From a virus (taxonomy: Duplodnaviria > Heunggongvirae > Uroviricota > Caudoviricetes): DNA of 5,204 nt. The position numbers and the translations under genes were made by a program. Below the pieces are notes generated by a model, which saw only the letters and a program-made list of their open reading frames with translations, was not told the origin of the DNA and did no database searches. Positions 266-296 of this stretch are shown piece after piece; position 1 is the stretch's first letter, and each line of letters begins with the position of its first letter. Location of the stretch: IMG/VR virus record IMGVR_UViG_2541047428_000017, one strand, 5' to 3'.

Positions 266-296
266 GGCTGGTGGGTGTAAGGGGCACCCACCAGCC
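266..296 (+). other. perfect 12-bp GC-rich inverted repeat (stem-loop), function unknown
   Basis: GGCTGGTGGGTG (266-277) pairs with CACCCACCAGCC (285-296) with no mismatch; 7-nt loop TAAGGGG. A T-run (244-249) lies 5' of the stem, not 3', so it is not a canonical intrinsic terminator on either strand. Confidence 0.55.

Follow-up and report, generated by a model that had tools for sequence, protein, structure and literature searches.

A probable structured leader RNA with a Chi-bearing stem upstream of M.EcoGII-family methylase genes in lambdoid prophages

Introduction

The com-mom region of phage Mu contains a toxic late DNA-modification gene that is preceded by a small open reading frame (ORF) and has RNA structure at its poorly accessible start site. 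Hairpins also serve as RNase III processing sites in phage polycistronic mRNAs, as in T7 R1.1 and the lambda N leader. At the DNA level, the RecBCD enzyme responds to Chi as a single octamer, for which no palindrome is needed. M.EcoGII and M.EcoGI are prophage-encoded, non-specific adenine methylases that stay silent in lysogens and do harm if expressed constitutively, and phage 1720a-02 was named as carrying a methyltransferase very similar to M.EcoGII (PMC5778455). Chi sites accumulate in lambdoid phages without their own recombination module; most lie on the top strand, and they cluster towards the right end (Zheng et al. 2025, PMC12315714), and 20 sites in the active orientation were counted in phage LLS (PMC12315714). 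In Stx phages, a short pR' transcript has been described as StxS (PMC7547250).

Here, we report an analysis of a 5,204-nucleotide stretch of viral DNA (IMG/VR record IMGVR_UViG_2541047428_000017; Caudoviricetes), referred to below as the window, in which a preliminary description had drawn attention to a perfect GC-rich inverted repeat at 266-296. Comparison of related sequences indicated that this repeat is very probably one helix, P1, of a conserved structured RNA leader of ~140 nt before a methylase gene of the M.EcoGII family. Neither this larger conserved structure nor the Chi octamer inside the left arm had been noted in that description. The locus may resemble com-mom of Mu in that a toxic phage modification gene is preceded by a small ORF and an RNA structure abuts its start. 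In contrast to com-mom, the small ORF product is winged-helix-like rather than a zinc finger and is dispensable for the presence of the leader, and a multi-helix leader takes the place of a single inhibitory hairpin.

Genomic context of the inverted repeat

The window belongs to a lambdoid prophage that is of the Stx-phage type but has no stx, and it represents the late regulatory region. The first 271 bases, when tested, matched E. coli O157:H7 prophages at 100% identity; they were present in 2124 of 5426 complete genomes of E. coli, usually as a single copy. The best phage match was phage 1720a-02, which was 93.8% identical over positions 1-1500 of the window. The small ORF (41-238, + strand) encodes a 65-residue winged-helix protein with a weak match to TrmB (PF01978, E 0.004, below the cutoff). 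At its end lies an intrinsic terminator, T1 (225-251, + strand), which consists of a stem at 225-242 and a T-run and is located 14 nt upstream of the leader. A T1-like hairpin with a T-run was present in 45 of 85 distinct upstream flanks under a strict scan and was absent in the Providencia and Morganella lineages, so that an obligatory unit of terminator plus P1 was rejected.

The gene that follows the leader encodes a beta-class N6/N4 DNA methylase (389-1446, + strand; PF01555, E 2e-43). In the window it is frameshifted by a 1-nt deletion in the A-run at 1071-1073, which reads AAA instead of the AAAA of intact relatives, and is thereby split into ORFs 389-1111 and 1090-1446; the frameshift is shared with one IMG/VR contig (L024). 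Database names for the methylase were generic only, with none naming M.EcoGII, and its link to that family is based on the published statement on phage 1720a-02. The window-type enzyme is probably a non-specific adenine methylase. Genes for tRNA-Met(CAU), tRNA-Arg(UCU) and small RNAs similar to STnc100 and to AgvB/AsxR come next, followed by those for a 664-residue esterase and a holin. The STnc100 match reached 175 bits at 1829-2037 on the + strand, and that of the anti-sRNA AgvB reached 56.6 bits (gathering score) at 2039-2098 on the - strand, with AsxR scoring lower. The STnc100-like RNA contains CUUCU in its terminator-proximal part and might be a candidate counterpart of the multicopy prophage sRNA HnrS (PMC13502914).

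A repeat search of the window revealed arms at 266-277 (GGCTGGTGGGTG) and 285-296 (CACCCACCAGCC), each of 12 nt, which are 100% complementary and separated by 7 nt. This was the sole perfect inverted repeat of at least 12 bp with a loop of 3-10 nt in the window. The longest comparable repeat in 300 dinucleotide-preserving shuffles was 11 bp and none reached 12 bp, which rules out a chance origin and bears out the preliminary view that a 12/12 repeat this rich in GC is hardly accidental. Its position between the first ORF and the methylase start at 389 was likewise as described. Folded as RNA, P1 (266-296, + strand) pairs 266-278 with 284-296; the perfect 12-bp stem is extended to 13 bp by U278.G284 around a loop at 278-284, with a free energy of -26.8 kcal/mol. 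REP and BIME elements occur as many dispersed copies per genome, whereas this element was found at a median of one place per E. coli genome having any, with a maximum of seven, and each E. coli copy was flanked by the small ORF and methylase gene of a prophage.

As a GC-rich, stable hairpin in a late regulatory region downstream of an antiterminator gene, P1 has the stem-loop expected of an intrinsic terminator, and it could be read as a second terminator without a U-tract or as the tR' of the late operon. However, no U-run was found 3' of P1, where the bases after the stem read ATCTGCTCATGCG or AUCUGCUCAUGCG, and a terminator scan of the window listed the 225-242 hairpin and did not list P1, in agreement with the earlier statement that this is not a standard intrinsic terminator. 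In addition, a canonical terminator is already present 24 nt upstream, and the hairpin is embedded in further conserved pairing for which a terminator would have no need. We consider a terminator extremely improbable.

The related proposal of a pR'/qut-tR'-like control region was correct in that relatives carry an antiterminator gene ~240 bp upstream of the small ORF. This gene, however, is of at least five unrelated Q or Q-like types, and Q is separated from the hairpin by the 65-residue ORF and its terminator. The tR' annotated in SfV is located between Q and the small ORF, with the hairpin beyond. Because of this position and the diversity of Q types, the hairpin is not part of pR'/qut-tR', which would lie directly after Q, before the first late gene, and be matched to the Q type. 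The locus does share with lambda tR'/6S RNA and with StxS (PMC7547250) the same late neighbourhood downstream of Q in Stx-type prophages. StxS and tR' immediately follow Q and have an intrinsic terminator at their end, whereas P1 is located further downstream, lacks a U-tract and is tied to the methylase rather than to the type of Q.

Conservation and covariation of the leader

We used the small ORF as an anchor in 80 viral contigs to compare P1 among close relatives. The left arm was nearly constant, and the right arm varied by transitions that gave G.U pairs, so that the palindrome proved to be conserved among close relatives as pairing; perfect 12/12 pairing is a property of one allele, that of the window. 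For distant loci, the search was anchored on the methylase with one genome per species, and viral contigs were added with a Providencia homologue as the starting point. Conservation was found to extend over the entire ~140 nt ahead of the start codon across Enterobacterales, from Escherichia to Providencia and Hafnia/Serratia-like lineages. A covariance model (R1) built from 21 Enterobacter-type sequences matched 94 of 98 methylase-anchored sources, once per locus and always on the + strand, and it recovered the whole leader of the window at 251-394 on the + strand with 111 bits and an E-value of 5e-25.

As evident from the alignment, 92.5% of all cells were paired, compared with 33-42% when the partners were slid. 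Compensatory change was present at 22 of 36 pairs over the leader, including all seven pairs of P4 and nine of the 13 pairs of P1, in which 95% of cells were paired; these counts overstate the number of independent events, since the sequences are related to one another and their alignment had been fitted to the model. Covariation across homologous phages had been proposed earlier as a check on the hairpin, and the compensatory changes in P1 provide it. Altogether, P1 occurred in 51 distinct versions, which had 21 different 5' arms and stems of 10-14 bp (12-14 bp in 44 of the 51), and the window allele was the most stable of all. In several lineages the two arms were wholly different yet complementary (GACTGTAAAGGTG/CACCCTTACAGTC, GGTGTGCATGATG/CATCATGCACACC, GGCAGAAGAGTG/CACTACTTCTGCC and GGCGGTATGGTG/CACCGGTACCGCC). 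In most genera, one of the arms contained a 1-nt bulge, and loop length ranged from 5 to 8 nt. Among non-standard pairs, G.U outnumbered A.C by 123 to 33 in P1 and by 97 to 6 in P4. This asymmetry points to RNA of the + strand and argues against a site in double-stranded DNA. An RNA-level role, which was one of the options listed in the preliminary description, is therefore the best-supported reading, since the covariation is strand-specific; the earlier interpretation as a whole was partly supported.

The same comparison bears on whether the repeat is a palindromic DNA operator for a dimeric protein, such as the small winged-helix product, that would act on a methylase promoter as the controller proteins of restriction-modification systems do. 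Operator half-sites also co-vary, 106 of 140 distinct loci have a small HTH-like ORF ahead of the element, and P3, a helix further downstream in the leader, has a perfectly palindromic apex in almost every lineage. The operator reading nevertheless fails because G.T "pairs", unlike A.C, are tolerated in the proportion given above, because the bulge and the variable loop leave no symmetric half-sites at a fixed spacing, and because the candidate regulator does not reliably accompany the element: 34 of 140 loci have kept the element but lack the small ORF. Moreover, a promoter scan found no promoter-like site between the terminator and the methylase. An operator, as suggested previously, thus appears very improbable. 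A promoter within TGTGRAAAUGGGCG was also rejected, as it had no acceptable -10 hexamer and the promoter scan found none. Com-like activation by the small ORF is weakened by the same 34 loci.

P1 was also found apart from the complete leader. In Xenorhabdus and Photorhabdus, leaders are short and have a P1 reduced to 8 bp that covaries, and in a PA11-type prophage P1 alone was kept, with all of its changes giving G.U, while the rest of the leader and the methylase were replaced. These cases indicate that P1 may have some role of its own. In the PA11-type locus (L005, 2640-2725), a near-consensus sigma-70 promoter (TTGATG, ~17 nt, TATAAT) comes after the hairpin and precedes a gene for a 237-residue HTH-domain protein.

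A search of Rfam 15 gave no + strand match at E<=1 over 251-394 of the window and none in seven divergent loci, and our literature searches returned no description of the leader. The leader combines a structure kept by compensatory substitutions with a fixed position and orientation 5' of one gene family, as expected of a cis-regulatory leader. It is a candidate cis-regulatory RNA motif with a dual-use stem that is apparently undescribed.

Architecture of the candidate leader RNA and its two possible folds

In the consensus fold, the + strand leader consists of a three-way junction formed by P0, P1 and P2, followed by P3 and P4. P0 pairs UGGGC (261-265) with GCCCA (333-337) and encloses P1 and P2 (301-323), in which GCUCAUG (301-307) pairs with CACAAGC (317-323). 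P3 (338-356) is formed by CUGCUUU (338-344) and AAAGCAG (350-356), and P4 (359-381) by UGAGCCU (359-365) and AGGCUUA (375-381). P4 ends 8 nt before the start codon; it is followed by GAUCC and then by the AUG at 389, which lacks a Shine-Dalgarno sequence.

The minimum-energy fold of the window is different. In particular, AUGGGC (260-265), which includes the 5' strand of P0 and A260, pairs with GCUCAU (301-306), so that the 5' strand of P2 doubles as the 3' strand of a 6-bp helix, P1a, and both P0 and P2 are destroyed. P1 and P1a together form a hairpin of ~19 bp with a 4-nt bulge on the 3' side. Each of the P0 and P1a pairings is possible in every lineage. P1a was 96-97% paired with variation on one side only, and P0 was 100% paired with one compensatory event (G-C to A-U in L103), while P2 displayed true compensatory changes (pair 58/81: UA 45, CG 29). 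In constrained folding, the extended hairpin lay at a median of 3.4 kcal/mol below the junction form and left the AUG region somewhat more paired. The helix that covers the start region showed little covariation.

The long hairpin is the form that would suit a site of RNA processing. P1 could act mainly as a processing or stability hairpin, either as an RNase III site in which P1 is stacked on P1a or as a barrier to 3' exonucleases; it would then divide the transcript into an upstream message and a methylase-tRNA-lysis message and let the leader beyond it fold anew. The locus is similar to T7 R1.1 and the lambda N leader in its long, stable intercistronic hairpin, its one-sided internal loop and its conserved stem length, which is held at 12-14 bp while the sequence changes. 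The great stability of the stem and the retention of P1 beside the upstream unit when the methylase is replaced also fit. By contrast with those sites, the lower stem here, P1a, is in competition with P0 and P2, for which the covariation support is better; P1a itself varies on one side only, whereas P2, with which it is mutually exclusive, shows true compensatory changes. RNase III sites comprise about two turns of coaxial duplex, often with an internal loop where the cut is made. P1 alone, at 12-14 bp, is short for RNase III, and P1a with its bulge is optional; cleavage here is putative. As the main function of P1, both parts of this reading appear unlikely, although processing is compatible with a role inside the leader rather than opposed to it.

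The leader can also be compared with riboswitch leaders built on three-way junctions. Like these, it has highly conserved junction sequences, a peripheral stem conserved in pairing only, mutually exclusive pairings and a fixed position 5' of one gene family. Unlike them, it has no match in Rfam, and neither a terminator nor a clear Shine-Dalgarno-sequestering expression platform is present. Two exclusive conformers are what a switch would look like, and the modelled folds lend this idea weak support. An ambitious reading would be that the leader is a new class of conformational-switch RNA that senses lytic growth and licenses the toxic methylase, with one arm of P1 doubly coded as a functional Chi site; we regard this as doubtful. 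Such a switch would alternate between the three-way junction and the extended P1a-P1 hairpin in response to a signal for which SAM or SAH, the methylase itself, RNase III and a ribosome terminating on the upstream ORF are candidates, and the toxic, non-specific adenine methylase would be licensed only when phage DNA is about to be packaged. If both the switch and the Chi reading were true, a single 12-nt stretch would be under selection as both RNA and DNA.

Several further features of the leader were observed. The apex of P3 (342-351, and likewise in L151, L170 and L201) is a perfect palindrome without an unpaired centre in almost every lineage, in the versions TTTGCGCAAA (that of the window), TTTAGCGCTAAA, TGTGCACA and TACGCGTA. 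The RNA tetraloop is therefore always self-complementary (GCGC, UGCA or CGCG), which is unusual for a hairpin loop and could reflect loop-loop dimerisation or a protein site at the DNA level. A GATC sequence (Dam site) at 384-387, directly before the start codon, was invariant in 44 of 44 aligned leaders, and the P2 loop contains a second GATC or a GGTC; the two sites may either pair with each other or play a part in connection with Dam methylation.

Other candidate features were rejected. Kissing of the P1 loop (UGGUAG/UGAUAA) with the P4 loop (CUAYCA), which are complementary in many sequences, was accompanied by no covariation, with 4.6 observed and 4.7 for shuffled partners. A mini-ORF at 260-280 (AUG GGC GGC UGG UGG GUG UAA, MGGWWV*) has no Shine-Dalgarno sequence, and its frame and stop are not conserved; its tandem Trp codons, which are made by the Chi sequence, are reminiscent of trpL. 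A frame of 27-33 residues is open in some lineages and is interrupted by stops or 1-nt indels in the window and the commonest type.

Association of the leader with the methylase gene

A leader-anchored scan of viral contigs with a P2-P0 segment pattern yielded 120 contigs, of which 111 had enough flanking sequence. A DPPY methylase ORF directly followed the leader in 107 of these 111 and was frameshifted in two more. The leader is found almost only before the M.EcoGII-family methylase gene, and it belongs to this gene rather than to the small ORF, which is dispensable.

The explanation that we favour is that P1 is a helix of a + strand leader RNA within the Q-dependent late operon and that it takes part in controlling expression of the methylase; we regard this as reasonably probable. 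For the narrower proposition that the leader regulates the methylase, the sequence evidence leaves the balance even. The leader would be transcribed on the + strand as part of the late operon and would gate the translation of the methylase message, its stability, or both, so that the toxic enzyme would be made only in lytic growth. P1 would be the rigid arm of the fold, and the AUGGGC on its 5' side would pair either with GCCCA, giving P0 and the junction, or with GCUCAU, giving P1a and the long hairpin with P2 broken. Methylases of the M.EcoGII family are present on very many E. coli prophages, including Stx phages, and the leader is an obvious candidate for their control, with its stem as a testable handle.

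Chi octamers in the P1 stem

We found an exact Chi octamer, 5'-GCTGGTGG-3', inside the 5' arm of P1 at 267-274 on the + strand, which is the top strand and carries the late genes Q, methylase and holin; this is the active orientation. A second exact octamer at 288-295 on the - strand is in the inactive orientation and exists only because the 3' arm of this allele is perfect. The G/U-rich 5' arm spells Chi on the strand where it is active when RecBCD enters lambdoid phage DNA at the right (cos) end. The window contains five Chi octamers, compared with 0.28 expected from its composition. In phage LLS, our recount gave 20 top-strand and three bottom-strand sites, and the homologous P1 octamer at 39318 is on the top strand, among these 20 and among the five rightmost sites. 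The Chi site as such has therefore already been counted in LLS (PMC12315714), while the leader itself is new to Rfam and to the literature searched. The two loci are alike in that the surrounding DNA is rich in Chi with a top-strand bias. The difference is that the octamer here is recognised inside the 5' arm of a conserved RNA stem, which relatives keep without Chi.

The late region around the methylase showed strong top-strand Chi enrichment in all lineages. Outside the hairpin, flanks of methylase-oriented loci contained 0.3-0.6 Chi sites per kb on the top strand and 0.02-0.24 per kb on the bottom strand, a ratio of ~3.5:1; the E. coli average is ~0.11 per kb per strand by our own arithmetic from a quoted literature figure. 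Flanking Chi sites were about twice as dense where P1 carries Chi. In the 120 viral contigs (L251-L370) together with loci L088-L249, 574 top-strand and 166 bottom-strand sites were counted in 922 kb where P1 has Chi, and 44 and 13, respectively, in 139 kb where it does not.

These numbers could suggest an element built from Chi, in which back-to-back octamers stop RecBCD degradation and start recombination from either direction and the hairpin is incidental. The exact octamers in both arms, the excess in the window, the Chi-rich, top-biased and right-end-clustered sites documented in lambdoid phages without recombination modules and the recombination junctions within the element (deletions at GT-rich microhomology and the L086 hybrid, see below) are consistent with this. 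However, the single octamer to which RecBCD responds requires no palindrome, and the excess of G.U over A.C is a signature of RNA. Because the stem survives with full compensation in lineages without any Chi and the opposite-strand octamer was present in only 5 of 51 distinct P1 sequences, compared with 27 of 51 for the top-strand octamer, a Chi-centred element is largely excluded as the primary function and is distinctly unlikely.

A second layer of selection over the RNA role is a separate matter. The Chi-bearing arm is identical from Escherichia to Morganella and Photorhabdus, and other lineages rewrite it. Wobble asymmetry alone can explain the invariance, since transitions in the G/U arm break pairs, whereas those in the C/A arm do not. 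In Chi-rich phages, it is plausible that the 5' arm is retained for Chi as well. A Chi site within an RNA stem offers a clean natural case for asking whether Chi in Chi-rich phages is selected, and related phages show the form of the stem where Chi is not required.

A second palindromic double Chi, CCACCAGCTGGTGG, was observed at 1080-1093, with overlapping octamers on both strands. It lies in methylase coding sequence (His-His-Gln-Leu-Val), and its top-strand octamer is allele-specific, because other alleles read CCACCAGCTGCTGG or CCACCAGCTGGTCAG. We therefore rejected it as a special element, and it is not the cause of the frameshift.

The start of Stx2c homology at 258 in megablast was considered as the mark of a mosaic boundary and rejected, as it reflects faster divergence of the homologous upstream small ORF. 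True recombination junctions in the element were a minority and comprised 14 loci deleted via GT-rich microhomology, the PA11-type prophage and the L086 hybrid. In the deletion class (L006, 2611-2650; L088, 2895-2925; and 12 further loci), homology stops exactly after the left arm, at GGCTGGTGGGTG|TGGTGGTTGTTGC. It looks as though the Chi-bearing arm recombined with TGGTGGCGGGTGTGTGG, a GT-rich near-repeat located downstream of the tRNA genes, with loss of the methylase, the tRNA genes and more. In L086 (1719-1883), the P1 5' arm is joined to a PA11-type 3' arm with 29 extra bases, followed by CACCAGCC and a normal leader, and this locus is a recombinant with its junction inside the hairpin.
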